From a virus (lineage: Duplodnaviria > Caudoviricetes): a stretch of DNA of 64,000 bases. Position 1 is the first letter of the stretch; every line of letters starts with the position of its first letter. Location: IMG/VR virus record IMGVR_UViG_3300028364_000013; one strand, given 5' to 3'. The position numbers were made by a program, and so were the translations under genes. The notes below the pieces were generated by a model. The model was not told the DNA's origin, did not search any database, and saw only the letters and a program-made list of their open reading frames with translations. This document shows positions 12,998 to 56,865 of the stretch, in pieces.

Positions 12998-13046
12998 AAT
13001 TTCTACTTGTTTGGTTACATTAATATAACGACAGGAATTTAAAAAG

Positions 13047-13307
13047 TTACAATTTTAATTTTACAAGCATTATCTTTGTATATTCATCAAGAATATCACC
13101 AGCGCTTTTAGAGACAAGAATGTTTTTGTTTTTGTTTTTTAAGGTATATACCCTGTCGGCATAGAATCCAGGCTGCTTGTTAATATTAATATTGGTTACT
13201 GTTACTTCACCGTCAGCTGAATGGTACTCTTCAAAGCAAATGACTCCTGAATCTCTTACAGTATTCTCCTGAATTTTGTTCTTTTGCTCTTGCGTTAAAT
13301 CAATCAT
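13047..13307 (-). CDS. hypothetical protein
   Basis: ORF after minus-strand pA. Confidence 0.75.
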   Translation of the reverse strand: MIDLTQEQKNKIQENTVRDSGVICFEEYHSADGEVTVTNININKQPGFYADRVYTLKNKNKNILVSKSAGDILDEYTKIMLVKLKL

Positions 13308-13369
13308 CTTTTAATGTTTTTATTGGTTACATATATATAACGACCAAAATTCAAAAAGTTACAAAGATA

Positions 13370-13397
13370 TAGAACATTAATTTTTATTTGCGTATAA
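13370..13397 (+). promoter_or_regulatory. class B ECF-like promoter at left island edge
   Basis: TAGAAC-N15-16-CGTATAA, back-to-back with a minus-strand pA. Confidence 0.65.
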
Positions 13398-13491
13398 GAA
13401 AGTAAGCGAACTTTCTAAGGTAGAAATTTGATTTTGTAACTTTTTAAAAACATATCGTTATAAGTATGTAACCAATAATAAAACAAACATT

Positions 13492-14061
13492 ATGAAAAAT
13501 TTAGTAAGAATTACAAGAGACCAAGCAGTAACAATGTTCACTAACTACAAAAAAGAAGTTTCGGCTTCGGGTGTAGCATTTTCAAACATTGCATACTTAG
13601 TAGACGAGTCAAAGTCTAAAACTGTAAAAGGTAAGAAAGTTTTACAGAAAATGGTTGAAACGAACGCAACAATAGGGAGTGATTATGCAAAGAAAGTTAA
13701 CAAAATTCTTGACAGAGAGGGAAAGGAAATTGTTTTTGAAGCGCAACCAATGAGAGGTAAAGATTATGTTTCAGAAGGAAACCCAGTGTGTATGGACACA
13801 AAGACACAAGAAAAAAGATACTTAGTATTCATTGTTGAAGGACATTCAAAGCCACAAACACAATTGATTTTAGATGGAAAGTTAGTTGACCGTAAAGATG
13901 TTTGGAATGATACTTACATTACACCTGCGGGATTGAAACCAAATGCAGTTGCAGGACGTGGAACGATTAACGAAGAAAATAACTTCTTTTTCAGAACGCT
14001 TGACTTTAACAACTTAATTTCTTTCAATATGAATGGTAATATGTACCTAATTGAGGGATAA
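13492..14061 (+). CDS. hypothetical protein
   Basis: ORF after pA. Confidence 0.85.
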   Translation: MKNLVRITRDQAVTMFTNYKKEVSASGVAFSNIAYLVDESKSKTVKGKKVLQKMVETNATIGSDYAKKVNKILDREGKEIVFEAQPMRGKDYVSEGNPVCMDTKTQEKRYLVFIVEGHSKPQTQLILDGKLVDRKDVWNDTYITPAGLKPNAVAGRGTINEENNFFFRTLDFNNLISFNMNGNMYLIEG

Positions 14062-14079
14062 GAAACGAAACAACAACGA

Positions 14080-14108
14080 GGGGGGCGAATTGCTCCCCTT
14101 TTTTTTTA
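14080..14108 (+). terminator. intrinsic terminator
   Basis: GAGGGGGGCG-AAT-TGCTCCCCT plus T-run. Confidence 0.7.
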
Positions 14109-14129
14109 TAAACTTAGAAACTCTCCCTA

Positions 14130-14348
14130 ATGGCAAAGATAGTATTATTAGAAGATGCAAAAAAGATGATTGGCGGACTTGTTAAGGCAGTTGGTACGTG
14201 TGGCATTGGCGATGGCGTTACTGTGCATGGAATACTATTAGAACTCTCCCCAATACCTATTGTATTGGTCTTAAAAGGTAACGGGCATAGCCAGCCTTAC
14301 TCAGTAGATAAAAACACCTTAGAACGCATTGAAACTCTCCCTAATTAG
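14130..14348 (+). CDS. hypothetical protein
   Basis: ORF. Confidence 0.65.
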   Translation: MAKIVLLEDAKKMIGGLVKAVGTCGIGDGVTVHGILLELSPIPIVLVLKGNGHSQPYSVDKNTLERIETLPN

Positions 14349-14405
14349 ATTGTAACTTTTTGAATTGCTATCGTTATATCTATGTAACCAATAAAGATAA
14401 ACAAA

Positions 14406-14648
14406 ATGGCAATAGGATTCAACACACCGTCAAAAAGACAAGCAGAAGAGTTAGAAGGACAAAACTCTCCCCAACCTCAACAAATGGGCGAAATGCCTAC
14501 GGGTCACTTACAAGCTCAGACAATACAAAAAATGCAAGCCTTGGGCGATATGATTTGCTCACCAAATTTTGCAACTCTCCCCGTGGCACAAAAAGAAATG
14601 ATGTTAATTGATTTTGCATATTTCACAAACCTTGCAAACGTTTTGTAA
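14406..14648 (+). CDS. hypothetical protein
   Basis: after pA; stop is the TAA of the next pA. Confidence 0.75.
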   Translation: MAIGFNTPSKRQAEELEGQNSPQPQQMGEMPTGHLQAQTIQKMQALGDMICSPNFATLPVAQKEMMLIDFAYFTNLANVL

Positions 14649-14698
14649 CTTTTTAAATTCATTTCGTTATACACTTGTAACCAATAAAGACAAACAAA

Positions 14699-14962
14699 AT
14701 GGCAAAGCATTATAAGTACGAAAAATTAATGGAGCATAACCCGACAAGCTACGGAGCAATGACAAACTCAAAGGGTCAAGAGATAGAGTTCTTTGAGCAC
14801 CCAATGCAAGGAGATATGTCAGTTGTTATATGTGTATGCCACAAATTAGAGAAAGCGGCAGATAGCACGTTTTTTGAAACTGATGACATGGAAGCAGAGC
14901 ATGGAGAATATGAGCCAAGTTTTCAAAATGGAAAATTATATATTGGAGATTTTGAAGCTTAG
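14699..14962 (+). CDS. hypothetical protein
   Basis: after pA. Confidence 0.8.
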   Translation: MAKHYKYEKLMEHNPTSYGAMTNSKGQEIEFFEHPMQGDMSVVICVCHKLEKAADSTFFETDDMEAEHGEYEPSFQNGKLYIGDFEA

Positions 14963-15019
14963 ATAATTGTAACTTTTTGAAATCGTATCGTTATACACTT
15001 GTAACCAAAAACAAAAGAC

Positions 15020-15412
15020 ATGAAAATTATTTTAGATAAAGTAGAAGTTTTAGAGATGGTGCATAACGCACTTTGCAACGGAGGGTTAAGCGAACTCGCA
15101 ATGTGTTCGGTTCGATTAAACATAGTTCAAGAGGACTATGAGGAAGCGAAAAACACTTGGAACGCAGAGAATGACAATAGCCCGTGTCGTGAGGACATTT
15201 ACGCTCAAATTCTTAAAAGCGGAAAGCCTTTACAGTTTTTTGACTATGAGGGGGATGAAGCGTTAGAATTCACGCTTGAGGGTGCGATAGAAGCCCTTAG
15301 CAATGAAGATGCGTCTGAAATAGTGTTGACCTACAAAGAAGAGGGGGATGATGCGATAACGGCTACTGAATTGCTTCAGCACTGTTTATATGGAGAAGTA
15401 ATTTTTGGATAA
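15020..15412 (+). CDS. hypothetical protein
   Basis: after pA. Confidence 0.8.
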   Translation: MKIILDKVEVLEMVHNALCNGGLSELAMCSVRLNIVQEDYEEAKNTWNAENDNSPCREDIYAQILKSGKPLQFFDYEGDEALEFTLEGAIEALSNEDASEIVLTYKEEGDDAITATELLQHCLYGEVIFG

Positions 15413-15593
15413 GATGGTTGATAAAATTTATTACATAACAAACCCTTATAGTGATGAGGGTAGAACCACCAAAAACTTTGACATTCCAAAGTGTGGAAAA
15501 GAAAAGCGCAGAGAGAAGAGAAAAGCGCAGAGAAAGAAATTGTAACTTTTTGAAATCGTATCGTTATATGTATGTAACATAAAAACAACGACA

Positions 15594-16172
15594 ATGAAAG
15601 ACTTAACAAAAGAAATGCACTTCGAGGAAAACTGTAAGACAACCCTTGGAGAACTTGAAAGATTAGCAAACAGATTACTTGCAACGATTTGGACAATTGA
15701 TATTTACAGTTTCAAAGAAGCAAGTGTTATTAACTTAAAAGAATTGGGGTGGAAGTTTGAGTATAATTCAAGAAAAAGAGCAGCAGGTCTTTGTAATTAC
15801 AGAAACAAAACGATTTACCTTTCAAAGTATTTGGTAACTCAAAACTTAAGCAAAGGATTAGAATTTGAAAACACATTGCGTCACGAATTAGCGCACGCAC
15901 TTGATGGAGCAATGGGAGGAAGAAACCACCACAACAACGTGTGGAAAGCAATAGCAAGAAAAGTACTTTGCACCGCAGAAAGATGCTACAAGTCGGAGGA
16001 CATTAGCGACACTCAAAGTAAATACACATTAGTTTGTGAAAATGGATGCGGGAAAAAAAGTGCGAGTCACAAAAAGAAGAAAAGAATTAGTGCTTGTGGA
16101 AAATGTTGTAACGAACACAACAACGGAAGATACACCGAAAAGTATGCACTAACACAGATACAGAACTATTAA
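15594..16172 (+). CDS. SprT-like zinc metalloprotease domain protein
   Basis: RAAGLC, TLRHELAH (HExxH), HNNVWKAIA, C-terminal Cys cluster. Confidence 0.85.
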   Translation: MKDLTKEMHFEENCKTTLGELERLANRLLATIWTIDIYSFKEASVINLKELGWKFEYNSRKRAAGLCNYRNKTIYLSKYLVTQNLSKGLEFENTLRHELAHALDGAMGGRNHHNNVWKAIARKVLCTAERCYKSEDISDTQSKYTLVCENGCGKKSASHKKKKRISACGKCCNEHNNGRYTEKYALTQIQNY

Positions 16173-16289
16173 GAGATTATTGTTTGTGTGGTTACGACAA
16201 TAAGGGGAGGCTGAAAAGTCTCCCTTTTCTTTGTTTGCCCCGAACGAGCGAAGCGTTGTAACTTTTTAAATAACCATCGTTATATGAAT

Positions 16290-16364
16290 GTAGGTAGGAA
16301 ACTGATACGGGCATGACATTTCAAAAATGGCGGAAGAGTAGACTCCAACACGCCCTCTTTTTTT
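16290..16364 (+). ncRNA. candidate sRNA, GAGTAGACTCCA family (copy A)
   Basis: own pA, no ORF, GGGC...GCCC stem plus T-run. Confidence 0.55.
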
Positions 16365-16409
16365 AAAACTCTCCCTTGTAACTTTTTAAAACCTCATCGT
16401 TATACAGAT

Positions 16410-16622
16410 ATGAAACTAACGCAGACACCCAACGCAGAATTAAACGCTAAGGCAATGGATAATGCTTTGCCTGATGGAAATTACTTAACCTGCCCTAAGT
16501 GGGGATACAGTGAGCGTGAGGTGGTCATAAAGGATGGAATACTCTCTCTTGTAAATGACAGTGAACATAAGTTCACACAACATTGGTTTTTCAAAGTCAA
16601 TGATGTATTAAAGTCTTTGTAA
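16410..16622 (+). CDS. hypothetical protein (leaderless)
   Basis: ATG 5 nt after pA -10; stop inside next pA. Confidence 0.8.
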   Translation: MKLTQTPNAELNAKAMDNALPDGNYLTCPKWGYSEREVVIKDGILSLVNDSEHKFTQHWFFKVNDVLKSL

Positions 16623-16668
16623 CTTTTTAAAACTGTGTCGTTATACATACATAACCAACAAGACAATT

Positions 16669-17013
16669 ATGAAATTTTTATTTGGATTTAGCAACGGATG
16701 TTACTGGCTGATTATTAGAACCGCAGAGGAACTGGAATTTGCCCTGAAGCATATGAACATGACCAACAGAGCAATGGATGTTTATTTGGAGGCGTTGACA
16801 AACAATAAAGTAATTTACCTTAATGAAGCAGGCGGATACCATACTGGCAGAATTCAGAATACAGATAAAACTCAAATGATTGAGAAAGACGCTTCAAGAT
16901 TTCCAACGAAGATGGATAGGGTTGAGGTTTTGAAAGAGGAATTACTGGTAGAAATAAATGAACTGGAAGAGGCTTTAAATATGCCATTAACTAAAAAAAT
17001 TATACTGGACTAA
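16669..17013 (+). CDS. hypothetical protein
   Basis: after pA. Confidence 0.8.
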   Translation: MKFLFGFSNGCYWLIIRTAEELEFALKHMNMTNRAMDVYLEALTNNKVIYLNEAGGYHTGRIQNTDKTQMIEKDASRFPTKMDRVEVLKEELLVEINELEEALNMPLTKKIILD

Positions 17014-17342
17014 TGGAAGATATTTTAAACATATTAAAAGAACTTTTGATAGGGTTAGAGTTCAATGATAGGACTAATTATATTGTTGTATGCAAATTCA
17101 GCATGAGCAATGTTAGAGCGTGGGAAAGAGATGGGTTACCAGCCTCAATGAAAGGTGAGAAGCCAGACCAAGTAATTTACCTGATGCCAGAGATTTCTCA
17201 CAGACTTAACCAGAAGGAGCAGGTGTATAATTCAGCAAAAGCTCTGGAAGAACTTATGGGCTTGGGATACAAAGTGGATGTGTGCGCTACAAAGAATGAT
17301 TTTATTATGGGAGATGACAATTTTATAACTCTCCCTTTGTAA
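17013..17342 (+). CDS. hypothetical protein
   Basis: coupled; stop inside next pA. Confidence 0.75.
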   Translation: MEDILNILKELLIGLEFNDRTNYIVVCKFSMSNVRAWERDGLPASMKGEKPDQVIYLMPEISHRLNQKEQVYNSAKALEELMGLGYKVDVCATKNDFIMGDDNFITLPL

Positions 17343-17370
17343 CTTTTTAAACCTGAATCGTTATACAGAT

Positions 17371-17688
17371 ATGAAAACAGCAAAGAAAGATTTACAAGAG
17401 TGGGCAAAAGCAACCATAGCCGCAAAGGTTCAGGAGCTTGAGGCTGCAATGAGATTCATTCTAAGAAACCAGCAGTATGACGGATTCTTTGATGCTGATG
17501 ACGACAAGAACGAAGGTAGAGGCAGACAGGGAAGGGTGTATATTGAGATGGACGGTGAAACGCCTGTGTTATATGTCAACTGGGATGAGGTTTACGCTAT
17601 TAATGAGCAGGAGGCGTTATTTGAAGAACTTTTTGAAGGTGATTTCTCCAGCAACAAAGTAGTTAGAATTACAGGCGTGAAATTATGA
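17371..17688 (+). CDS. hypothetical protein (leaderless)
   Basis: ATG 5 nt after pA -10. Confidence 0.8.
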   Translation: MKTAKKDLQEWAKATIAAKVQELEAAMRFILRNQQYDGFFDADDDKNEGRGRQGRVYIEMDGETPVLYVNWDEVYAINEQEALFEELFEGDFSSNKVVRITGVKL

Positions 17689-17954
17689 ACAGGGCTTGGA
17701 TAGTATTCACCATTGATGACCAGCAGGTGTACCAGATAGAGTACAGGGGATGTACTGGACAGGATGTGATTGACGGATACAAAACCATGATTGCTGGTGA
17801 ATACAGGATACAGGAGTCGGATGTTCAGGTAAGTTTTAAGGATGACCTGAAGCAAGACCAGAAGACCGTCCTGAAGACAAAAGAAAAAATTACCAGCTCG
17901 GAGCTGGTCAGGGATACCTTAGAGATGTTAGTCCAGAAGGTGAACCAGAACTAA
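17685..17954 (+). CDS. hypothetical protein
   Basis: ATGA overlap. Confidence 0.75.
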   Translation: MNRAWIVFTIDDQQVYQIEYRGCTGQDVIDGYKTMIAGEYRIQESDVQVSFKDDLKQDQKTVLKTKEKITSSELVRDTLEMLVQKVNQN

Positions 17955-19021: not shown

Positions 19022-19238
19022 ATTGTAACTTTTTAAAATACAGTCGTTATACAGATAAGAACCAATAAAATAAAGAAGCCATGAAAAAAAGATTCTGATA
19101 CAGCAAAGTCTGAACTTCCAAAAAACAGAGATTAACAACTGCAAGAGCAGACCTGATTTTTCCTAATCATAACTCGTCCTCACAAGGGGCGGGAAAAACG
19201 TGATTTGTAACTTTTTGAAATCGTATCGTTATACAAAT

Positions 19239-37159: not shown

Positions 37160-37233
37160 CACTCCGTATCGGATTCAAACCGATGGTCTTCTCATAGAAA
37201 GTGAGACGTGTTGGGTCGCTACACTAACGGAGC
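37160..37233 (-). tRNA. tRNA-Glu(TTC), atypical
   Basis: cloverleaf; anticodon loop CTTTCTA (U37), T loop TTTGAAT, D loop lacks GG. Confidence 0.8.
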
Positions 37234-37236
37234 GTT

Positions 37237-37321
37237 TGGTCTTGCGTATCGGATTCGAACCGATGAACCTTTCGGGCTGCCTTGAAAGGGCAGTTACTTT
37301 GAGCCGCTTGTATAACGCAAG
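37237..37321 (-). tRNA. tRNA with TTC anticodon and long variable arm
   Basis: CTTGCGT/ACGCAAG, A73, encoded CCA, CTGCC-CTTTCAA-GGCAG, variable CCCGAAAGGTTC. Confidence 0.8.
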
Positions 37322-37496
37322 AAATATAAGCACAAAAAAAGAGGATAACACTTGTGCTATCCTCTTGACTACGATTTTGCGATTTAAAAATCCCTCAATC
37401 TGGTTTGTTAACTTAGAGCATAGCGAAGTAGTGGAGTCTCCTCCAAACGTTCACTGTTCTCTATGTTTACAAATCTTTTCATTTTCTTATTTTTTG

Positions 37497-37569
37497 TTGC
37501 GCAGGCCAGACTCGAACTGACGACCTCAAGATTATGAGCCTTGCGAGCTACCAACTGCTCCACCGCACT
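37497..37569 (-). tRNA. tRNA-Met(CAT), initiator-like
   Basis: TGGAGCAGTTGGTAGCTCG D arm, CTCATAA loop, 1:72 mismatch; lacks the three G:C anticodon-stem pairs. Confidence 0.85.
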
Positions 37570-37597: not shown

Positions 37598-37626
37598 TTA
37601 TACGCAAATATAAGAATAAAGTTCTA
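37598..37626 (-). promoter_or_regulatory. class B promoter driving the tRNA cluster
   Basis: TAGAAC-N16-CGTATAA on minus strand. Confidence 0.7.
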
Positions 37627-45782: not shown

Positions 45783-46592
45783 ATGAAAATAATTCAAAAA
45801 AGTGATTTTTACAAAGTAGCATTAGCAGCAATAATTGTTGAGAAGGGATTCAACGTCAGAACAGACCTTGGAGACATTGATGCGCTCGCTCAGTCAATTG
45901 CAAAACTTGGACAGCAGACTCCAATTATTGCAACGAAAGTTCGTGGAGAGGACAAATTCCTCTTGACAGCAGGACACCGTAGATTGGCAGCAATTGCGAT
46001 TGCCAACAAAAAGTATGGTGCAAACATTACTCACGTAAATGTGATGAGCGCAAAAGGAGATGAGAAAGGTCGTGTCTTAACAATGTTGCTTGATGGAGAG
46101 GCTTCAAAGAAACTTTCAGCCTCTGAGATGGCTACTGGGTTTGCAAGACTTAAAGCAATGGGAATGAAGCCGTTGGAGATTGGTGCAAACGTAGGTCTTT
46201 CACAAGCGCAGGTGTACAACATTATTAATGTCACCAAAGCACCTCAGACCATTCAAGACATGGTTGAGAAAGGATTGATTTCTGTGGCTCTTGTGAATGA
46301 GATTCAGAGAACAACCAAAGACCCAGAAGAGCAAGTGAAGTTGGCAGAAGAGGCTGTGGCAAATGCGAATGTTGATGCAGGGGATGAGGATGGAGAGCCA
46401 AAGAAAAAGAAGGCTACCTCAGCAAATGCTAACACAAAGAAATTGTCAGCGGATGTTGCCAAGTTGGAAGCAGCAATTGAACTTGCAATTGAGGATAACC
46501 CTGCAAGTGGTAAAGCAGCAGTACTTAAAGCAATTGTTAACAAATTGAAGTCTAAGGCTTCGGCAGAAGATATTGCCAAGCTATTGAAATAA
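45783..46592 (+). CDS. ParB/Spo0J-like protein with HTH
   Basis: FNVR...LAQSIAKLGQQTPI...LTAGHRRLAA; central HTH (GMKPLEIGANVGLSQAQV). Confidence 0.85.
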   Translation: MKIIQKSDFYKVALAAIIVEKGFNVRTDLGDIDALAQSIAKLGQQTPIIATKVRGEDKFLLTAGHRRLAAIAIANKKYGANITHVNVMSAKGDEKGRVLTMLLDGEASKKLSASEMATGFARLKAMGMKPLEIGANVGLSQAQVYNIINVTKAPQTIQDMVEKGLISVALVNEIQRTTKDPEEQVKLAEEAVANANVDAGDEDGEPKKKKATSANANTKKLSADVAKLEAAIELAIEDNPASGKAAVLKAIVNKLKSKASAEDIAKLLK

Positions 46593-46629: not shown

Positions 46630-46699
46630 GCTCCTATCAGTTGGTAGAAAGCTGGGCTTCTAAAACCCGCAGTCCACGGTTCGAACCCGTGTGGGAGCA
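46630..46699 (+). tRNA. degenerate tRNA with CTA (amber) anticodon
   Basis: GCTCCTA/TGGGAGC acceptor, TGGGC-TTCTAAA-ACCCG, CACGG-TTCGAAC-CCGTG; D arm shortened. Confidence 0.55.
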
Positions 46700-46760
46700 C
46701 AAGTTGTAACTTTTTAAATCACCATCGTTATATAATTAACTAATAAAAAACCAAAATAAA

Positions 46761-47525: not shown

Positions 47526-47623
47526 AATTATAAATTTAGAAAACGTTCTTTGAAGTATTGTTTTATAAAAATAGAAAACAGAGTTATTTTGGTTTTTCAT
47601 TTTTATTTTATATATTTATTAAT

Positions 47624-48721
47624 ATGAAAGATATATTAATAAAATTTAAAAAGGTTCATGGTGAATTGTATGATTATTCATACGTAGATTATAAAGACAG
47701 ATTAACTAAAGTAGCTATAGGGTGTAAAGTTCATGGTGAATTCCTTCAAACTACAGCAGCCCACATTAGTGGCCAAGGTTGTCCAGAGTGTGGTAAAATT
47801 AAAAGAAGGATAGGGAAGAGAATTACTTTTGATGACTTCCTGATAAGAGCTAAAGATAAACATGGAAACAAATTTTCTTATAATAAAGAATCTTATGTTG
47901 ATATAGAAAAAGCTTTTGTTATTGTATGCCCTAATCATGGTGAGTTTACACAGTCTCCCAAAACTCATATAAAGAGTCACGGTTGTCCAAGATGTGGAAA
48001 CAACTCTGCATCACACAAACTCTCCCTTACTCGTCAAGAGTTTGTAGATAAAACTATCAGCGTTCATGGTGACAAATTCATTTATGATAAAGTCAAATAT
48101 ATCAACAATAGAACTCCTATTATTATAACTTGTAAGTTTCATGGAGATTTTAATCAAAAACCTAATTATCATTTATCTGGAAATGGTTGTCCTAAATGTG
48201 GAGGCACCTCTAAACTTTCTCTTGAAGGCTTTATAGATAGGAGTAATTTGATTCACGATTTTAAATATGATTACTCTAAATCAGAATTAATCAATAGCAA
48301 AAAAAAAGTTAAAATAATTTGCTTAAAGCATGGAGAATTTATGCAATCTCCCTCTCACCATATGATGGGCTCAGGATGCCCAACATGTAATGAGTCTAAA
48401 GGAGAAAAGTTGGTTGCAAAAATTCTTAAAGAAAAAAGCGTTAACTTTGTAAGACAAAAGAGATTTAAATATTGCAAAAATAAAGCAGTTCTCCCTTTTG
48501 ATTTTTATTTACCAGACTTAAATGTTTTGATTGAATTTGATGGTGCGCAGCATTTTTATCCTTGGAGATTAAAAGATACAGAAGTTGCAAAATTAAAACT
48601 TAAGAAGACACAAGAAAATGACCTTATCAAGACTGAATTTTGTAAAAAAAATGAAATTAAATTATTAAGAATTCGTTTTGATGAGAATGTTAAAAATAAA
48701 TTAGATAAACTATTAAAATGA
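47624..48721 (+). CDS. homing-endonuclease-like protein: tandem C-x2-HG zinc-finger repeats (DUF723-like) plus C-terminal PD-(D/E)xK/DUF559-like nuclease
   Basis: four C..HGEF.Q....H..G.GCP.C repeats; PFDFYLPDLNVLIEFDGAQH. Confidence 0.8.
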   Translation: MKDILIKFKKVHGELYDYSYVDYKDRLTKVAIGCKVHGEFLQTTAAHISGQGCPECGKIKRRIGKRITFDDFLIRAKDKHGNKFSYNKESYVDIEKAFVIVCPNHGEFTQSPKTHIKSHGCPRCGNNSASHKLSLTRQEFVDKTISVHGDKFIYDKVKYINNRTPIIITCKFHGDFNQKPNYHLSGNGCPKCGGTSKLSLEGFIDRSNLIHDFKYDYSKSELINSKKKVKIICLKHGEFMQSPSHHMMGSGCPTCNESKGEKLVAKILKEKSVNFVRQKRFKYCKNKAVLPFDFYLPDLNVLIEFDGAQHFYPWRLKDTEVAKLKLKKTQENDLIKTEFCKKNEIKLLRIRFDENVKNKLDKLLK

Positions 48722-49695
48722 AGCCAGGCCAAAACATAATTAAACAAATAGAAGACGGGAATTTCAATTTAAGTTCGCATCCAGTTTTTAGTCATAATCC
48801 AAAAAGATTAATGGATATTGGTTTTAATAAATCTCTTGAGTTAATTAAAAGAAGAGTTGGAGACCACAATCTCTCCCCAGTATATTTATTTAATTTATAT
48901 AAAACGTATCAATTTAAAATAGATATTATTGAGAGTAGCATTAAATCAGAGCTTGAACAAATAGCGGAAGATACAATTAGAGAAATGTATGATGTACCAG
49001 AAGATATAAATATTAAACCAAAGATTGTTAATCAAGATGATATTGAATATGATTTTGACTCTGAAAATGAAAAAATAGAAGTCTCCCCAGAAAGACTAAG
49101 ATTAATAAAAGAAGAAGCAAATAAAAGAATAATACTAAATTCTATTGTTCATGGTTCATCTGTTATGATTTGGTCAAGCGCATATTATATTGTAAAAGAA
49201 AAACTTGATGAATTAAATAATAAATTAATTGAACTATATGATATTTATTCTGCAGTTGTTAGTTATTTACTTTGGCTTCAGGAACCAAGTCAAGATTTGT
49301 CTGGAGTAGAAAAACAAGGAGTTTGTGAAATTGATTTTGAAGATGGATTAAGTTGTGAAGGAATAAATTTTCCAGTACTTTTATTGGAGACAAATAAAGT
49401 GGTGATTGATTATCTTATTTGTAAAGGTATACCAACCGATTTTAGTGAAGAAGAGTTAAAATTATATTATGCTCTTTCAGATGATTATAATCAAGAAATT
49501 TGGCATAATACATTGTCTCCAGTTATATATTCTGATTTTTTAGAAACAATAGAAATAGAATCAAATAAATTACCTGATGTAATATCAAAATTATCTCAAC
49601 TAAATTATGAAGAATTAAAAACTGTGTTCATATCTATACAACAAGATTCAAAAGAATCAGGAAAAATAGAACTTTTAAAATTTAAAATCGTATAA
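48718..49695 (+). CDS. hypothetical protein
   Basis: 325 aa ORF; stop is the TAA of a class B promoter. Confidence 0.85.
   Translation: MKPGQNIIKQIEDGNFNLSSHPVFSHNPKRLMDIGFNKSLELIKRRVGDHNLSPVYLFNLYKTYQFKIDIIESSIKSELEQIAEDTIREMYDVPEDINIKPKIVNQDDIEYDFDSENEKIEVSPERLRLIKEEANKRIILNSIVHGSSVMIWSSAYYIVKEKLDELNNKLIELYDIYSAVVSYLLWLQEPSQDLSGVEKQGVCEIDFEDGLSCEGINFPVLLLETNKVVIDYLICKGIPTDFSEEELKLYYALSDDYNQEIWHNTLSPVIYSDFLETIEIESNKLPDVISKLSQLNYEELKTVFISIQQDSKESGKIELLKFKIV
49667..49695 (+). promoter_or_regulatory. class B promoter upstream of the RadA-like/sigma region
   Basis: TAGAAC-N16-CGTATAA. Confidence 0.65.
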
Positions 49696-49848: not shown

Positions 49849-49899
49849 ATAATACAGACTGTAACTTTTTAAATATTAATCGTTATAAACATAATAGTC

Positions 49900-50116: not shown

Positions 50117-51025
50117 ATGAAAACGAAAAGAACATATGATGAAGTTGAGATTATTAATACTCCGTCTATTAAGACAGGGATTAAAACTCTTGACCTGTTC
50201 CTTTCTAACAATGGAGGGTTCGAACTTGGAAACCTGATTCTTATGACAGGAACTTCAGGTGCAGGTAAGACAACTCTTTGCAAACTGATTCAAAGAGAAA
50301 TTAAAAAACCAACATTATTTCACGCCTTAGAAAGTTTAGCGTCTTCAGTTAAGAGACAAACTCTTAGAATTAAAACACATTCCAACTGTTTTATTACTGA
50401 CGGGAAAGATTACCAAGACTTTGATGAGTTCATGGATTTCATTTATAGAGATAAGCCAAGATTTGTTATGGTTGATTCACTTCAACACGCTGTGAAACAA
50501 CTTAGGAAAAAAGGCATGGGAAAAGATGAGGCTTACCACCACGTACTGGACTCTTTATACAGATGGAAAGATGAGACGCAAGGAATTGTAATTCTTATTT
50601 GTCAGTTGAATAAAGACAACACGTTTTCAGGACCGTCAGGAATGTTGTTCGATGCGGATGTTCAGGTACACTTAGAGTACAACTCTAAAACAGGAGTTAG
50701 AACAATGGATACGAAGAAAAATAGAATGGGTCAACTGGACTCGATTTATTATGAGTTCTCTTCAGGAGTTGAGGTGATGAAGTTCTACACTCAAGAAGAA
50801 TGGGATGTAATTAAAATGGGTGTCACTTTGCCAGAGATGTTAATGAACATCATCTTCCAGTATTCAAACGCCTACAGGAACCACGATTCGTATTCTGTAT
50901 TTAAGAAAGAATTCAACAAGAAGATTAAGGTGATTTATAATTCTATTGATGATGACCTTGAGATTTGTTTATCAGTTACAAAACTGATGAGTGAATTAAC
51001 TAAAAAGTATTTTGTAACTTTTTAA
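50117..51025 (+). CDS. RadA/Sms-like RecA-family ATPase
   Basis: Walker A GTSGAGKTT, Walker B VMVDSLQ, SGP....DADVQVHL, KNR. Confidence 0.8.
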   Translation: MKTKRTYDEVEIINTPSIKTGIKTLDLFLSNNGGFELGNLILMTGTSGAGKTTLCKLIQREIKKPTLFHALESLASSVKRQTLRIKTHSNCFITDGKDYQDFDEFMDFIYRDKPRFVMVDSLQHAVKQLRKKGMGKDEAYHHVLDSLYRWKDETQGIVILICQLNKDNTFSGPSGMLFDADVQVHLEYNSKTGVRTMDTKKNRMGQLDSIYYEFSSGVEVMKFYTQEEWDVIKMGVTLPEMLMNIIFQYSNAYRNHDSYSVFKKEFNKKIKVIYNSIDDDLEICLSVTKLMSELTKKYFVTF

Positions 51026-51069
51026 ATAACCATCGTTATACATACACGAACCAATAAATAGAGAGAGAT

Positions 51070-51711
51070 ATGACAAACGTAAAGAAAGATTCAGAACAAG
51101 CTACTAAAGATAAAGCAAACGTAGCAGTGCTTCAAGATATTAATGCCACAGCAAGAGCAAAAGATGATGCTTTTAGTAAGCTGTATGGTAGACACAACCA
51201 ACAAGTCCGCATTCACTTCCTCAAGAGATTGAGAGATACAGATGTTGCTGAGGATTTGCTTATGATAACTTTTGTAAAGGCGCATGAGAACATTAACACT
51301 TATGACCCAAAAGTGGGTGCATTTTCTACTTGGTTGTACAAGATTGCAAACAACTCTTTGATTGACTTGTTGAGAAAAGCAAAGTTCGAAGTTCTTTCTT
51401 TGGATTCGCTTCAAAGTAAGACGTCAGACGACAATGATGGAATGGAATTTCAATTAGATTCAGATACTCCAAACCCATTGCAAATTCTTGTTCATGATGA
51501 GGTAACAAAACAAGTTTCTGATGCAGTTAATTCTATTAAGTCCAAAAAAGTTCGTGAATTAATGATTTGCAGATACATTGATGAAATGAGTTTTGAAGAA
51601 ACGGCAAAGGCTCTTGGTCTTGAATTGAATTCAACACTTAGAACAGCTGTTGCAAGAGGTAAAGAGATTCTTAAAAAGAAATTAGCTAACCTTGAAAATA
51701 ATGTCTCATAA
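51070..51711 (+). CDS. RNA polymerase ECF sigma factor (sigma70 group 4, SigW/RpoE-like)
   Basis: region 2 VAEDLL...FSTWLYKIANNSLIDLLRK; region 4 RYIDEMSFEETAKALG...RGKEILKKKL; lacks regions 1.1 and 3. Confidence 0.92.
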   Translation: MTNVKKDSEQATKDKANVAVLQDINATARAKDDAFSKLYGRHNQQVRIHFLKRLRDTDVAEDLLMITFVKAHENINTYDPKVGAFSTWLYKIANNSLIDLLRKAKFEVLSLDSLQSKTSDDNDGMEFQLDSDTPNPLQILVHDEVTKQVSDAVNSIKSKKVRELMICRYIDEMSFEETAKALGLELNSTLRTAVARGKEILKKKLANLENNVS

Positions 51712-51942
51712 CATAAAACCAACGGTCTTATGACCGACCCCATACTACTGGGATGTGATAGTGTAGTGACTATTGTCTGGAAGTAGTGTTATGATAAAAA
51801 GCTATTAGTTCGGTGAATGAAGCAAAGCGTTAGCGCCAATAGTTTAAGTGCCCCGTGGTTATGATACACCACGGGGTTTTTTGTGCGTTGCCCCGAACGA
51901 GCGCAGCGTTGTAACTTTTTAAATATCCATCGTTATACAAAT

Positions 51943-52022
51943 AAGAAAAGGGCCTGGCGGAGAAAGTCGGAAGAGTAGACTCCAACGTGCGTTGGATTTT
52001 GTGAACAAGCTCCAACCTGCCC
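51943..52022 (+). ncRNA. candidate sRNA, GAGTAGACTCCA family (copy D)
   Basis: own pA; second CTCCAACCTGCCC at about 52010. Confidence 0.55.
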
Positions 52023-52105
52023 AATACTCTCGTGAAATATAAATTTATAATTTTAGAAAAATAAAGCCCGTTATTAACATATCGCCTAAAAAAGATTGTT
52101 TTAGG

Positions 52106-52134
52106 TAGAACATTTTAAAATCTCTTACGTATAA
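52106..52134 (+). promoter_or_regulatory. class B ECF-like promoter
   Basis: TAGAAC-N16-CGTATAA. Confidence 0.7.
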
Positions 52135-52280
52135 GATAATGAAAGAACAAATAGATTTATATTTTTTACACTTTGTAACATTTTGTAACATTTTGTAACT
52201 TTTTAAATCTATGTCGTTATACAGTCATAACCAATGACCGCAGGGCAAGACCTGCTTTGCAGTCGCAAAAAACAATTATT

Positions 52281-53156
52281 ATGAAAAATGAAAATGCATT
52301 TAACTGGGACATTAAGCAAACAGGAATTCTTGACATTAATGGAAACCCTATAAAAGGGTACAAAGAAATTACTCGTGATGACAATGGGTCAAGCATTGCT
52401 GTTATGAAAGAGTCTTATACGCCAATGACAACTCAACAATTCTCTGATACAGCAAACGAAGTTGCAGGTGCAATTGGAGGTTCTGGACTTATTTTTAAGG
52501 ATTGGAATGACAATAGTGTTGAAGGGCAAATGGGAGCTAACAAGCCCGTGATTACTTGTCAGATGGAAATGAGCGAGCCTCTTGAGATTGCAGGCTCAAA
52601 GATTGAAGGTAAGTTAACAATTGGTGTTGGATTTGACGGAGGGCGTAGCTTCTTTATTGGTCACACAAATACTTACCTTAGATGCACAAATGAATTCTCT
52701 TCAATTGTGAAGGACTTCAAAAGCAGACTTACTGTAAATAACATGGTAAGAGTTGAAGACATTATTAAAAACATTCAAACGTATAGAGATTACGAAAGAA
52801 ATTTATACGAAAACTTTGAGAGATTTCATAACACAAAAATTGATGAAAAGATTGTTCAAGAATGTCTTGCACGTCTTGTTGATTTGACTGTTGAAGAGAG
52901 AGCAATGACTGTTAAGGAGAGAAACACAGAGTTGTCTTCTCAAAAGTTGAACAAGATTGATGACATTACTGCAAGTATTAGAACAGAAATGGCAGAGCTT
53001 GGTAACAACGCTTGGGGATTATTCAATGGGGTCACACATTATTCTACACATATTATGAACTCAAGAGGTTCAAATGAGTTGAGTACAATGTTCGGAGCAA
53101 AGAACAAAGCAAACCAAATTGTTTATGGCTTAGGTCTTGAATTACTTGATGCATAA
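52281..53156 (+). CDS. DUF932-family phage/plasmid protein
   Basis: FDG....GHTNTYLRCTN and NAWGLFNGVTHY motifs. Confidence 0.75.
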   Translation: MKNENAFNWDIKQTGILDINGNPIKGYKEITRDDNGSSIAVMKESYTPMTTQQFSDTANEVAGAIGGSGLIFKDWNDNSVEGQMGANKPVITCQMEMSEPLEIAGSKIEGKLTIGVGFDGGRSFFIGHTNTYLRCTNEFSSIVKDFKSRLTVNNMVRVEDIIKNIQTYRDYERNLYENFERFHNTKIDEKIVQECLARLVDLTVEERAMTVKERNTELSSQKLNKIDDITASIRTEMAELGNNAWGLFNGVTHYSTHIMNSRGSNELSTMFGAKNKANQIVYGLGLELLDA

Positions 53157-53232
53157 GATGCTAAACAACAAACTTAAGGAGAGCAGAAATGTTCTCCTTT
53201 TTTTGTGACCAATTTTGTCTAAGGAAAGTTTA

Positions 53233-53321
53233 GGGCAGGGGTGGATTGCCTGTCAAGGCTGTGCTCTTGACTTTAAGGCACAGGGCACTTATTCTTACCT
53301 TGCCTGTTTCACTCAAGGGAC
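53233..53321 (-). ncRNA. candidate sRNA, AATCCAC-CCTGCC subfamily (copy H)
   Basis: own minus-strand pA; possible pseudoknot CTGTGC/GCACAG plus GTCAAG/CTTGAC. Confidence 0.5.
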
Positions 53322-53411
53322 ATAGTTATAACGATAATGGTTTAAAAAGTTACAACCGTTGGAATTCTGGTTTTTAATTCATATTTATCAGAAAATCTAA
53401 AACCAACAACC

Positions 53412-53657
53412 ATGAACCTAAAAGAAGCAAAACAATTGTTTGAAGAAATAGTAGAACTTTGTTACCAGACAGAAAATCAACAACTGATTGAAACCATTGA
53501 ACAAATTTATCCAGAAGTAGAAGAAGCAACAGCAGTTTTTAAAGTAATATCTTCAGCTGAAGAATTACAAGTTATCATAAACGAAATAGAATTCCTTCCT
53601 GAAGAAGAAGAGGATGTCCAGGAGCTGCAGGAGATAATCGAAAAGTTGTCAGAATAA
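53412..53657 (+). CDS. hypothetical very acidic protein
   Basis: ORF after ATATTTAT motif. Confidence 0.8.
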   Translation: MNLKEAKQLFEEIVELCYQTENQQLIETIEQIYPEVEEATAVFKVISSAEELQVIINEIEFLPEEEEDVQELQEIIEKLSE

Positions 53658-53714
53658 CATAAATAATTTTTATTTGTAAAAGTCTTTGCGTATCTTTGTG
53701 CAAAGACTTTTTTT

Positions 53715-54284
53715 ATGCACAGAGGAATTATCATATACTTATCAATCCTGATAGGCTTAGCTCTTACAGCTGGGGGTAGCTATTTTATTATTGACAACCT
53801 AATAAAACCACAGGGGTTTATGTTCGAAGGAATCATGGCAGCAGGCCTGGGAATAACATTGCTTATGTCAGTAATCGTTGCCGCAACAATCGGAAAGGCA
53901 ATTATGCTGTTCGGTGAAATCCTGGAGCAGACAACAAAGCTAAATCAGGAAATTGTAAAACAAAGCCAGCCGCAATCCATATCCAGTATATTTCAGGGAA
54001 TGATGCCGCCAGGCTCAAACATGACTGTTACAAACCTGAACACAGGAGAAACATCATCCAATAAACCTGAACTGGGAAAAATGAGTGAGATGATTTTTAA
54101 CGCAATGGCTGCTGGCTTGAGCGGCAAGACAAATGTAGAACTTAAAGATATGAGTGTCAAGGAGTTAGAGAAACTCTTGGCAAAAGCTATTAAGGATGAT
54201 GACTATGAATCTGCAACAGAGATTAGTGCAATCCTGAAGGAGAAGAAGAATCCTGGTTCAGGTGACTCTGAAAATAATTCATAA
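53715..54284 (+). CDS. membrane protein with C-terminal UVR motif
   Basis: 2 TM; ELEKLLAKAIKDDDYESATEI. Confidence 0.7.
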   Translation: MHRGIIIYLSILIGLALTAGGSYFIIDNLIKPQGFMFEGIMAAGLGITLLMSVIVAATIGKAIMLFGEILEQTTKLNQEIVKQSQPQSISSIFQGMMPPGSNMTVTNLNTGETSSNKPELGKMSEMIFNAMAAGLSGKTNVELKDMSVKELEKLLAKAIKDDDYESATEISAILKEKKNPGSGDSENNS

Positions 54285-54288
54285 AAAA

Positions 54289-54317
54289 TAGAACATTCTA
54301 AATTTATAAACGTATAA
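54289..54317 (+). promoter_or_regulatory. class B ECF-like promoter
   Basis: TAGAAC-N16-CGTATAA. Confidence 0.7.
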
Positions 54318-54321
54318 GATA

Positions 54322-54455
54322 ATGTAGGCTGAAAGATACCTACATTCTAACGAGATTTCCTTTTGGAAGTTTTAGTTGTCTATCCTGAAGGTGGAATATC
54401 CTGACGGAATTGTCTCTTATCAGAAAAGCTCGGTTTTGTCACCGAGCTTTTCGCT
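54322..54455 (+). ncRNA. candidate pB-driven sRNA
   Basis: no ORF; ATGTAGG/CCTACAT hairpin; AAAAGCTCGG/CCGAGCTTTT terminator. Confidence 0.45.
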
Positions 54456-54554
54456 TTTATAGTAAGTTGCTTCGTTACGAACAACGAAGTTGCAAGCAAA
54501 GCGGAAAATGAATTTATTCATTGTAACTTTTTAAATTCCTGTCGTTATACAATC

Positions 54555-54767
54555 ATGGGAAACCCAAATTCAAAAAAACACAAAGCAAACCACGCAGGCT
54601 ACAGAGATAAGCCAGGGCGTAGAGCAATTGACGCACTTTGCGGAATGTACGCTGCAATTGGTAATGTAGAAATTCTGGTTGGAACGCCAGGAGAAGGAAA
54701 GCCGAGACTCGGAACTCCAGTAAACAAAACACAGCCAAAACCAGGTACACAGCTTAGTTTATTCTAA
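54555..54767 (+). CDS. small basic protein (leaderless)
   Basis: ATG 5 nt after pA -10. Confidence 0.7.
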   Translation: MGNPNSKKHKANHAGYRDKPGRRAIDALCGMYAAIGNVEILVGTPGEGKPRLGTPVNKTQPKPGTQLSLF

Positions 54768-54820
54768 ATTGTAACTTTTTAAATTGACATCGTTATACAC
54801 TTAAATTAAAAACAATTATT

Positions 54821-55324
54821 ATGAAAAAGTATTTATTAGTATTAGCATTAGCAGGATTGTTCACTTCAATTTCAAGTTGCAAGAAAGAAACAATTGAACC
54901 GAAACCTGAACCAGACACAACAGTTGTCACAACCAATGAACCAGTAGCAATGAACCTTCAGGTTTATTCTTTTGATGACGGCAATGGATTTGCAGGATAT
55001 GACTTCAAAGTTGTCATAAAAAGCCCAAATGAGTCCGTTGACTCTTTGTCTACAACATTCTCCAATTATTCTGATGGAGTTACTTCACCAAACTTTGCAA
55101 CACTTCAATGTAATGTAGATACCAGTCTCGTTTATACGATAGACATATATGATAATGCAAATAATTATTTGTTAACTGTTCCTTTAGAGTTTCATTGGGA
55201 AGATTATATTCTGGCAGTCAATGATGATGCAAGTAGTACAATTACTGGAGAAGTATTTAACCATGATAACATAGAAACACAAAACGCCTCACAGGCTCAT
55301 GTTGTTTTAGCTATTGGTAAGTAA
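54821..55324 (+). CDS. lipoprotein
   Basis: signal peptide with lipobox ISSC-KKE, Bacteroidota style. Confidence 0.8.
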   Translation: MKKYLLVLALAGLFTSISSCKKETIEPKPEPDTTVVTTNEPVAMNLQVYSFDDGNGFAGYDFKVVIKSPNESVDSLSTTFSNYSDGVTSPNFATLQCNVDTSLVYTIDIYDNANNYLLTVPLEFHWEDYILAVNDDASSTITGEVFNHDNIETQNASQAHVVLAIGK

Positions 55325-55422
55325 ACTTTGTAACTTTTTAAATTCCTGTCGTTATACAGATATAACATAACCTGCGTGAGATTGTTCATGCAGGTTTTTT
55401 AACCACATTAAAACTTAGAGAT

Positions 55423-55752
55423 ATGAAATTCGTTTACATTATTGAAATTGGACAGCTTAGCAAATTAGAGAACAAATTTAACTTCTATGACATGGAAGTG
55501 TTCCCAAGTCAAAAGGCAGCTGACCATGTTGTTAAAAATATGATTGAGTGTAATACCTCTGGAGATTTTGAAGAACTTGTTAAGCAAGGTGATGTTAGAA
55601 TTGAGAAGTCTGAAGAAGGCGGATTCAAGAGAGGTGAAGTTAGTCATACTGTTTATACTTACAATTGCATGGGGTCTGGATTCAATAACGTTCCTACCAA
55701 AATGACAGTGAGATACGTAGTTAGAAAAATGTTAGTAAACAGAAACTTTTAA
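55423..55752 (+). CDS. hypothetical protein
   Basis: after pA. Confidence 0.8.
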   Translation: MKFVYIIEIGQLSKLENKFNFYDMEVFPSQKAADHVVKNMIECNTSGDFEELVKQGDVRIEKSEEGGFKRGEVSHTVYTYNCMGSGFNNVPTKMTVRYVVRKMLVNRNF

Positions 55753-55756
55753 TATT

Positions 55757-55942
55757 ATGGCAGACGCAAGAACAAAACAAACAAGAGTGCTTACTATTAC
55801 AATAGAAGTCTCTTCAGATGTAAAACTTCCTTCAGACCATGAGATGGTCTTAATTGCTGCAGCAGCTTCAGGAGCTATGGCAGACAAAGCAAAAGAGAAA
55901 GGGTTGACGCTCGATAACTTAATAACTCATAGCAATGACTAA
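55757..55942 (+). CDS. hypothetical protein
   Basis: ORF. Confidence 0.7.
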   Translation: MADARTKQTRVLTITIEVSSDVKLPSDHEMVLIAAAASGAMADKAKEKGLTLDNLITHSND

Positions 55943-56270
55943 TTTATTCTGGATACAAAAATATAGACAACAAATTTTCGCTCTGGAGCTTCTGGTGGCG
56001 ATTATTTTTGGACCTGCTCTGGCAAACATCCTGAGCGGCTCCGTCCTGTTAAGCCTGGTAATGATTGCAGCAGTTTTTCTATTTTTAGAAATTACTCTGG
56101 CTTTTACCAGGGTCACCTTTGCGAAGGTAGCCCATGAGAATACCAAGAAGATTTATGATAAGACACAGGCAGCACACAAAAAGATTAAACAGGACTACCA
56201 GGATATGACTGGTGAGCAACTGGACAAGCGCAGGGCAATACAGCATTCAAAAAAGAAACGTAAGCCCTAA
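55935..56270 (+). CDS. hypothetical membrane protein
   Basis: 2 TM plus basic tail. Confidence 0.75.
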   Translation: MTNLFWIQKYRQQIFALELLVAIIFGPALANILSGSVLLSLVMIAAVFLFLEITLAFTRVTFAKVAHENTKKIYDKTQAAHKKIKQDYQDMTGEQLDKRRAIQHSKKKRKP

Positions 56271-56307
56271 GAAGGCAAAAACAATATAAACTAAAAAGAG
56301 ATTATCA

Positions 56308-56339
56308 TTTGGTAGTCTCTTTTTTAATCACTACATTTG
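56308..56339 (+). promoter_or_regulatory. Bacteroidota housekeeping-sigma promoter
   Basis: TTTG-N20-TACATTTG. Confidence 0.8.
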
Positions 56340-56361
56340 CTTACATAAAAATTAATTAGAG

Positions 56362-56598
56362 ATGAGACTTACAGTACACGTATCAGGCGCAAAGAAAGAC
56401 ACGCACGAAAAGAAGACCAAAGAAGGAATTGTTAATGTTAAAAAAACATTTAACACTCTATCGTTCTCAAGTGTGAACCCAGAAGATGTTGGAAGCATCC
56501 TAAACAAGATTAAAGCTGAAGGGCTTGGAGAGCCTACCAAGCATTACCTCTCTAACGAGAAGATTCCTGGTCACGCCAGAGGGAAAAGAAAAGCCTAA
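56362..56598 (+). CDS. small basic protein
   Basis: ORF after host-type promoter. Confidence 0.75.
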   Translation: MRLTVHVSGAKKDTHEKKTKEGIVNVKKTFNTLSFSSVNPEDVGSILNKIKAEGLGEPTKHYLSNEKIPGHARGKRKA

Positions 56599-56712
56599 AC
56601 CCTGAACACAAATATATGAAAACCTTCAGCTATGCTGGGGGTTTTTTTTTGTCCAGTCGGGACTGGTCAAATTCAGATTTGTAACTTTTTAAAAACACAT
56701 CGTTATACAAAT

Positions 56713-56780
56713 GTCGATGCGAACAGCGAGACGGGTCTGGTCACCGAGGTGAACCGAAAGAGTAGACTCCAGCCTGCCTT
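56713..56780 (+). ncRNA. candidate sRNA, GAGTAGACTCCA family (copy E)
   Basis: own pA; hairpin GGTCAC-CGAG-GTG-A-ACC replaces the copy B hairpin. Confidence 0.6.
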
Positions 56781-56865
56781 ATATTTTCTTGCCAACCATT
56801 TTGTAAGCGAATCGGAAAAAGATTTTATTCTTTGTAACTTTTTAAATTCTTATCGTTATACAAGT

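Follow-up and report, generated by a model that had tools for sequence, protein, structure and literature searches.

A lineage-private array of putative ECF-type promoters, and an ECF sigma gene inside it, in a phage from lake metagenomes

In the DNA of a huge, uncultured Caudoviricetes phage that derives from lake and salt-lake metagenomes, a stretch of 64,000 nucleotides (nt; hereafter the window) was analysed, which belongs to the IMG/VR record IMGVR_UViG_3300028364_000013 (142,155 bases, rated 65% complete). Positions 13024-56860 of the window form an island in which a 28-bp motif, TGTAACTTTTTRAA-N6-TCGTTATA (class A), recurs in front of small genes and of units without an open reading frame (ORF). 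The island also contains the gene of a sigma factor of the extracytoplasmic function (ECF) superfamily, P0001, of 213 amino acids (aa). A second bipartite motif (class B), T[AG][GA]AAC-N16-CGTATAA, is present in 25 copies in the 142,155-base record, inside as well as outside the island.

The class A array and the island it occupies

In a pattern scan allowing up to three mismatches, 74 class A matches were found in the window, 71 on the plus strand and three on the minus strand (Table 1), of which 70 are perfect and four carry one mismatch (29301, 29775, 30490 and 37644). The same scan gave no match in 100 dinucleotide shuffles of the window and no further copy outside 13.0-56.9 kb in the 142,155-base record, and even the relaxed core GTAAC-N15-CGTTAT has all of its 74 occurrences in this record inside the island. 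The exact pattern is found in no other IMG/VR contig, and in 596 Gb of sequence from 185,579 cellular genomes it has one single-copy match, which is about chance level. An earlier note on this DNA had reported about 74 copies with the same strand division and the same borders, and had seen none elsewhere; the scan reproduces this exactly. The class A array is real and private to this phage lineage. Assembly contigs from four DNA runs break or jump at the repeated 28-mer, as is expected of k-mer assembly, and are uninformative on cassette shuffling.

Class A consists of two blocks of 15 and 8 nt in fixed spacing around a free 6-nt core, with the extended consensus TTGTAACTTTTTaAA, six nearly free bases and TCGTTATA. 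To either side of the motif, identity between copies is lost within about 2 nt. The flanks and the inner six bases are saturated with changes, and from this pattern each of the 22 fixed positions is judged to be held by selection; recent duplication or gene conversion would not be the cause, since it would have fixed the inner six bases too.

The island comprises about 99 plus-strand ORFs of at least 45 aa, which are small and mostly without a known family. The median distance between class A copies is 500 bp, and the intervals between them contain one ORF (39 intervals), two to six ORFs (21) or none (11). With 71 plus-strand copies for about 99 plus-strand ORFs, the earlier note comes near the mark in speaking of almost one promoter for each gene, and its idea that RNAs as well as genes are expressed from behind the motif is supported by about 11 class A units without an ORF, several of which contain recurrent small RNAs. 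Products with a recognizable family are a ParB-like protein, a RadA/KaiC-like ATPase, a DUF932 protein, a homing-endonuclease-like protein and the sigma factor, while the conserved island proteins of 186, 189 and 325 aa gave nothing informative in a protein atlas search.

ECF-type promoter architecture and the sigma factor

The two blocks of class A have the composition of ECF-type promoter boxes: TTGTAACTTTTT, with AAC followed by a T-tract, corresponds to a -35 element and TCGTTATA, with CGT, to a -10 element, and both are unchanged in 70 of the 74 copies. The fit to TTGACA-N17-TATAAT is poor and the motif contains no TTTG or TAnnTTTG of the Bacteroidota type. Its polarity is strictly gene-directed, and behind 65 of the 74 copies an ORF of at least 30 aa starting with ATG follows within 120 nt on the same strand. 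Between motif and ATG two distances stand out sharply, exactly 5 nt (nine copies) and 20-29 nt (42 copies). The 42 units of the latter group share a conserved leader that reads R-TAACCAA, continues in an A-rich stretch and lacks a Shine-Dalgarno sequence, and the first base of this leader occupies the same position as the ATG of the 5-nt group. As ATG and leader start at the same base, this base, the sixth behind the TATA of block 2, is the likely +1, which puts CGT at about -12 to -10, and the mRNAs of the nine 5-nt units are predicted to be leaderless. Moreover, a terminator-like hairpin lies within 70 nt upstream of 24 of the 74 copies, compared to 10% of random positions. The best explanation of the 74 repeats is that they are promoters for the host multisubunit RNA polymerase equipped with an ECF-type (group 4) sigma factor, and the fixed two-block geometry, the AAC and CGT boxes, the orientation and the ATG distances all support the earlier reading of the copies as promoters with ECF-type architecture.

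The repeats might also be thought to serve mainly as recombination sites or as operators, for instance of the ParB-like protein with its conserved gene in the island. Inside one copy there is indeed an indel junction between relatives, and block 1 is, at 15 nt, longer than the footprint of a sigma domain 4. This explanation is scarcely credible given that the motif has no inverted-repeat or palindromic structure, that it points strictly towards genes at fixed ATG distances, with nine starts at the predicted +1, that ECF boxes are present, and that relatives keep the geometry with other boxes. RNA-guided transcription, as described for dCas12f with sigma-E (PMC13472631), was considered and rejected, as the record contains no Cas12f or TnpB domain and the boxes are ordinary.

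P0001 matches Sigma70_r2 (PF04542) with 54.3 bits (cut-off 24; 56.9 bits in the genome search) and the ECF model TIGR02937 with 80.9 bits (cut-off 42.9), while PF08281 remains at 19.1 bits, below its cut-off of 25.7. Its residues 26-206 align end to end with the Bacillus subtilis SigW structure 5WUQ, which is its best match among solved structures (E 8e-28), and it shows the ECF layout, in which a short linker connects regions 2 and 4 and regions 1.1 and 3 are missing. It passes none of the equivalog models of named ECFs (SigW, RpoE, SigM and others), the best being SigW (NF007223) at 100.7 bits with a cut-off of 209. With the TIGR02937 score, the SigW alignment and the copy directly in front of the gene, the earlier placement of an ECF sigma gene inside the island behind its own motif copy holds. 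A cognate anti-sigma gene, a frequent but not a defining companion of ECF genes, is absent here: no ORF fits between the stop codon (51711) and the promoter that follows at 51910, and the neighbouring genes encode the ATPase and the DUF932 protein. No second sigma factor is detectable in the 142,155-base record; the only other region-4-like match was rejected as such, being a GIY-YIG homing endonuclease. Domains of phage RNA polymerases (PF00940, PF00562, PF00623) are likewise absent from the record, a weak negative as the record is a fragment and PF00940 is silent in control genomes too. The P0001 protein also occurs on a 364-kb contig, and the 142,155-base record is therefore part of a genome.

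In named phage records the nearest homologues of the sigma factor are those of crAss-like and Lak phages of Bacteroidota (26-34% identity), which, together with the A-rich leaders lacking a Shine-Dalgarno sequence, makes a Bacteroidota host plausible for this phage. A host-type TAnnTTTG promoter ahead of the sigma gene was found in none of the lineages and elsewhere is barely above expectation; one ECF-type class would therefore have to be readable before the sigma factor is made.

Class B shares this architecture with a spacer of 16 nt instead of 15, and its ATG often lies 6 nt past the motif, again of the leaderless type. Its targets are tRNAs, NAPRTase, a CCA-adding-type nucleotidyltransferase, peptide deformylase and AAA_33 proteins. 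Class B is unchanged and occupies the same places in every relative, even where the class A boxes diverge most, and eight of 12 relatives have an equivalent of the copy that heads the sigma operon, 0.4-1.4 kb upstream of the sigma gene. The record thus combines two ECF-type promoter classes with one detectable ECF sigma factor.

Relatives, the reader of class A and cassette turnover

About 36 homologues of the sigma factor have 45-94% identity, and the next matches reach at most 36%; the match at 36% belongs to a syntenic phage (L013), and one that was checked at 30% is cellular. Twelve sigma-encoding contigs, with sigma factors 36-75% identical to P0001, were compared; in IMG/VR no close relative was found by the exact motif or by the sigma factor. 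All 12 relatives share the gene order ParB, a few genes, sigma, followed by DUF932 in ten of them and, on most contigs reaching that far, by a UVR-motif protein. All 12 also have a dense array of their own with class A geometry, 15 nt from the core to the -10 triplet, and different boxes (GTAAC, GTCAC, GTGAG, GTGAT or CCGAC at -35; CGTTAT, CGCTAT or TGTTA at -10; Table 1). The 15-nt spacer is common to all copies in the window and all variants in relatives. On the sigma tree the boxes changed independently at least six times, resulting in at least eight box combinations among 13 genomes, and a class A-type copy stands directly upstream of the sigma gene in this phage and at least five relatives. 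As each array is near-invariant within its genome, the preference of the reader must differ between lineages, which points to a co-evolving specificity factor, most likely phage-encoded, behind the class A variants.

In one relative (L007) an IS605 OrfB/Cas12f-like TnpB gene (11321-12514) is located three genes downstream of the sigma gene. Another IMG/VR phage, which is unrelated and encodes a distant ECF sigma factor (L014), has, just downstream of the sigma match, a repeated pair that was rejected as a promoter array; it is an 87-nt in-frame coding tandem repeat of 26 copies (10800-13100).

Alternatively, class A could be read by an ECF sigma factor of the host that differs between host species, each phage lineage being tuned to its own host. 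Box changes would then follow host switches and nothing phage-made would be needed at time zero, and ECF-type promoters with a CGT box do exist in Flavobacteriia (SM6 class, PMC9723704). We regard this as very unlikely: the full motif is absent from the 185,579 cellular genomes apart from the one chance match, even if it is over-specified for such a test, and 22 invariant positions in 70 copies are far tighter than in host regulons. Host ECFs are, moreover, normally held inactive by anti-sigma factors.

That P0001 itself recognizes class A, whether or not it recognizes class B as well, is in our view about an even bet (probability roughly 0.5). The earlier note had claimed that the phage runs the regulon on its own ECF sigma; the private ECF-type promoters and the sigma gene behind its own copy stand, whereas the note had left class B out of account, which the specificity residues and the cellular homologues of the sigma factor fit at least as well as class A. 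In favour of class A are the private array that surrounds the sigma gene, the copy directly in front of this gene here and in at least five relatives, and the lack of another visible reader. Two residue patterns go with class A, too. The ten lineages with C at -13 have a polar residue (N, R, T or S) at the position equivalent to RpoE 79, and the two that have T at -13 carry H or L there. At position 175 I, M or G occur only in three of the four lineages with a non-AAC -35 core. In the working model, class A would be read by the phage's own sigma factor. The family-wide class B promoter at 49667 would supply the first transcripts of the sigma gene, and its own class A copies at 49860 and 51013 the later ones, and this positive feedback would lead to a burst of about 70 short transcription units.

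Several observations weigh against this model. According to the published ECF specificity code, RpoE positions 171, 172, 84 and 56 set the bases at -31, -34, -13/-12 and -11, D at 84 favouring CG and K at 56 favouring T (Todor et al. 2020, bioRxiv 10.1101/2020.06.23.168245). R171, D84 and K56 are invariant across the phage sigma family; class A nevertheless changes at -31 (L011, L007), at -13 (L007, L018) and at -11 (L008, L004, L016), so that it departs in five lineages where class B keeps C-31, CG and T-11 everywhere. The nearest cellular homologues of P0001 often have TGAAAC-N16/17-CGTA upstream, which resembles class B, and in L013 class B is unchanged and the island motif, TTTCTTTTTTTT-N10-ACCTATAA, is not ECF-like. 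Characterised ECF promoters have spacers of 16-18 by the usual count, SigW using AAC-N16-CGT, and class A is one base below the SigW type. The covariation signals each go back to one or a few events, substitutions in the recognition helix are not enriched over background (P0012 versus P0021), and the 142,155-base record covers about 40% of the genome, which limits the argument that there is no other reader. The code itself fails for this family at position 175, where R predicts T at -32 and both classes have A, and code-based arguments therefore cut both ways.

P0001 may thus read class B instead of, or besides, class A, because class B and the specificity residues are both invariant and the cellular homologues lie behind TGAAAC-N16-CGTA. 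This opens the way to a reversed cascade, in which class A would be the earlier tier, read by an unseen phage factor that is delivered with the virion or encoded by an immediate-early gene elsewhere in the genome of about 364 kb, and P0001 would be its product and read only class B. Next to the invariant residues, the cellular homologues and L013, such a cascade would accommodate SigW, with its consensus TGAAAC-N16-CGTA, as the best solved match, and the residue at position 172, for which genomes with mostly TAGAAC as class B have T and those with TGAAAC have V or A. It would also suit the island, which resembles an early hyperplastic region of ORFans like the promoter-early stem-loop (PeSL) regions of T4-type phages (PMC2839356), and class B, which drives conserved metabolic and translation genes across the record (tRNAs, NAD salvage, CCA-adding enzyme, deformylase). 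We nevertheless consider it rather unlikely, and even when a host sigma factor is counted in as a possible reader of class A, the case for P0001 reading class B only falls short of an even chance. No candidate reader of class A was seen in the 142,155-base record and class A has clear ECF hallmarks; the link between position 172 and base -34 represents one split between clades and is not strict, L016 combining T with TGAAAC; the residue patterns at 79 and 175 follow class A; and a class B promoter precedes the sigma operon too, so the order of the tiers is not readable from position.

The class A copies would double as points of homologous recombination, and genes and RNAs would thereby be gained and lost as ready-to-express cassettes. 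L002 and L010 are 97% identical over 10 kb, and L002 has an extra 377 bp consisting of a small-RNA unit and a unit with a 71-aa ORF. The single promoter of L010 at this place has the left flank of the first copy of L002 and the inner six bases and right flank of the third, which puts the indel junction in block 1. In other pairs of relatives, many homology blocks begin within 5 nt of the motif start or end about 30 nt past it.

The predicted small RNAs behind these promoters are about 60-100 nt long, with cores conserved between relatives (for example GAAGCCCGACATTGAAACAGCAGTCGCAAGG, at 2431, 3195 and 10703 of L002), and none belongs to an Rfam family, even at E 0.5. Between terminator and next promoter, 20-40 nt upstream of several class A copies (21998, 23222, 35755, 54522 and 56833; 16257 and 51910; 41479 and 44402), short recurring elements are found, such as GTAAGCGAAGCGGAAAAGCGTCAGCT-like ones. 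A tRNA-like sequence (46630-46699, plus strand) ends 6 nt before the class A copy at 46705; it scores 29 bits, equal to the Rfam tRNA threshold, and was missed by ARAGORN. Antisense to the island there are three tRNA genes (37160-37569, minus strand), two for Glu (UUC) and one with CAU, one of the two Glu genes being long and not confirmed by Rfam. The ORF at 47558-48721 (plus strand, 387 aa) carries DUF723 and zinc-ribbon motifs, and over about 200 nt its DNA has 66-70% identity to genes annotated as group I intron protein or HNH endonuclease in Staphylococcus and other phages; its product is probably a homing endonuclease in the conserved core of the island.

Table 1. Positions of promoter-like motifs, genes and RNA units in the window, and class A boxes of the relatives
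Feature	Position	Strand	Remark
ECF-superfamily sigma gene (P0001, 213 aa)	51070..51711	+	profile and structure matches
Class A starts 1-19	13024(-), 13336(-), 13435, 14351, 14644, 14968, 15541, 16257, 16377, 16618, 17338, 18033, 18327, 18562, 19024, 19206, 19322, 19584, 20015	+ unless marked	
Class A starts 20-38	20330, 20663, 21071, 21998, 22738, 23222, 23786, 24091, 24662, 25310, 25527, 26153, 26537, 27086, 27443, 28799, 29301, 29665, 29775	+	
Class A starts 39-57	30490, 30692, 31294, 31412, 31806, 32630, 33127, 33765, 34799, 35199, 35755, 36074, 37644, 38014, 38651, 40840, 41479, 42053, 42878	+	
Class A starts 58-74	43002, 43496, 44402, 44814, 45461, 45727, 46705, 49860, 51013, 51910, 52194, 53327(-), 54522, 54770, 55329, 56680, 56833	+ unless marked	
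Leftmost class A copy	13024..13051	-	leftward; 46-aa ORF, ATG 26 nt downstream
Class A copy, leftward	13336..13363	-	ORF 13047-13307; back to back with the first plus copy, left island border
First plus-strand class A copy	13435..13462	+	ORF 13492-14061; conserved leader present
Class A copy inside the sigma operon	49860..49887	+	
Class A copy directly upstream of sigma	51013..51040	+	29 nt before the sigma ATG; overlaps the end of the ATPase gene
Class A copy ahead of a small RNA	51910..51937	+	just past the sigma terminator
Third minus-strand class A copy	53327..53354	-	RNA-type unit; no ORF downstream
Last class A copy	56833..56860	+	RNA-type unit; right island border; class B copy 57040-57068 next
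Leaderless-type units (predicted), ATG 5 nt past motif	16377 (16377..16404), 17338, 22738, 24662, 28799, 35199, 35755, 37644, 54522	+	
Small-RNA family	19206 (19206..19233), 16257, 42878, 51910, 56680	+	core GGAAGAGTAGACTCCAAC
Small-RNA family	31294, 56833	+	core AGAGTAATCCACTCCTGCC
Class B copies	994-1022, 4859-4887, 49667-49695, 52106-52134, 54289-54317, 57040-57068	+	
Class B copies	37598-37626, 60252-60280, 62418-62446	-	
Class B copy driving tRNA genes 37160-37569	37598..37626	-	
Class B copy heading the sigma operon	49667..49695	+	1.4 kb upstream of sigma
Class B copy before the DUF932 gene	52106..52134	+	in tandem with class A 52194-52221; same tandem in relatives
Class B copy driving a conserved small RNA	54289..54317	+	
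ParB-like gene	45783..46592	+	conserved core common to all relatives
RadA/KaiC/DnaB-C-like ATPase gene	50117..51025	+	directly upstream of sigma
DUF932 gene	52257-53156	+	behind the tandem of class B 52106 and class A 52194-52221
Class A variant, L008, L004, L016			block 1 TTGTAAC TTTTTAAA; block 2 TCGCTATA
Class A variant, L002, L010			block 1 TTGTAAC TTTTACCT; block 2 TTCGTTATG
Class A variant, L011			block 1 TTGTGAG TTTTGAA; block 2 TCGTTAT
Class A variant, L006			block 1 TTGTCAC TTTTAAAA; block 2 TCGTTATA
Class A variant, L012			block 1 CCGAC TTTTAAT; block 2 TTCGTTAT
Class A variant, L105			block 1 TTGTAAC TTTTAAAT; block 2 TCGTTATA
Class A variant, L007			block 1 TGTGAT TTTT; block 2 GTTGTTAGAG
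Class A variant, L018			block 1 TGTAAC CTTTCTGA; block 2 TTTGTTATA
Island motif, L013 (sigma 36% identical)	1-5305 of L013		block 1 TTTCTTTTTTTT, then N10; block 2 ACCTATAA; 3 copies, fixed spacing

Known systems and the meaning of the locus

Phage sigma factors with private promoters are known from SPO1 (gp28) and T4 (gp55). A member of the ECF family is gp36 of phiEco32 (Savalia et al. 2008, as cited in PMC7881722). As in these phages, the phage sigma factor would redirect the host core polymerase, and no anti-sigma gene lies beside its gene. Different from them are the 74 copies in 44 kb, about 0.7 per gene, 70 of which are perfect at 22 positions, as well as the coexistence of two ECF-type classes, either of which the sigma factor may read. 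The phage sigma family has no place in a published classification, and the ECF classification 2.0 by its own account did not capture phage ECFs (PMC7826278).

The island is further comparable to the PeSL cassettes of T4-type phages (Arbiol et al. 2010, PMC2839356), which also occupy a hyperplastic region of small ORFans, have a strong conserved promoter and often a terminator, and are added or removed by recombination between copies. PeSL promoters are of the host sigma-70 type, whereas class A is of ECF type and lineage-private, with a clear stem-loop at only about one third of the copies. With respect to the boxes, class A has AAC at -35 and CGT at -10 as in the promoters of B. subtilis SigW and in the 'sigma-ECF' class SM6 of Flavobacterium psychrophilum (PMC9723704). 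It differs from the SigW type by its 15-nt spacer, TGTAAC, CGTT and a far stronger conservation, and it is class B that matches the SigW consensus.

A third parallel lies in the T7-like phages (T7, T3, SP6, K11), whose polymerases and promoters form co-evolving pairs. There too, promoters are near-invariant within a genome and differ in a few key bases between sister genomes; class A is, in contrast, bipartite and of the sigma type instead of being read by a single-subunit polymerase, and the co-evolving protein is not certain. In bacteria, orthogonal sets of ECF sigma factors and promoters have been described (Rhodius et al. 2013, as presented in a paper citing it). Our literature searches brought up no account of arrays of ECF-type promoters in huge phages of Bacteroidota, and a paper that recently dealt with the large aquatic 'moraphages' names a core sigma factor and no promoters.

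We tentatively propose, with somewhat less confidence than an even chance would warrant, that each class A variant co-evolves with an ECF-type reader of the phage and that the island constitutes a private, orthogonal expression channel as well as a capture platform. If so, a co-infecting relative or the host could not drive the island, and any gene or RNA that recombines behind the 28-mer would become an expressed cassette.

Huge Bacteroidota phages are abundant and their transcription programmes little known, and this locus makes one such programme visible in sequence: one family-fixed and one lineage-private ECF-type class, predicted leaderless mRNAs, promoter-led small RNAs and cassette turnover. 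It is most interesting for the question of which factor reads class A, for the coexistence of two ECF-type classes and for its promoter variants, which form a natural series. Should class A have a reader other than this sigma factor, an early-acting specificity factor awaits discovery. If the sigma factor does read class A, the relatives would provide a natural series of related sigma factor and promoter pairs with shifted specificity. With such pairs the published code of ECF specificity could be tested, and they would be of use in Bacteroidota as orthogonal parts for expression.

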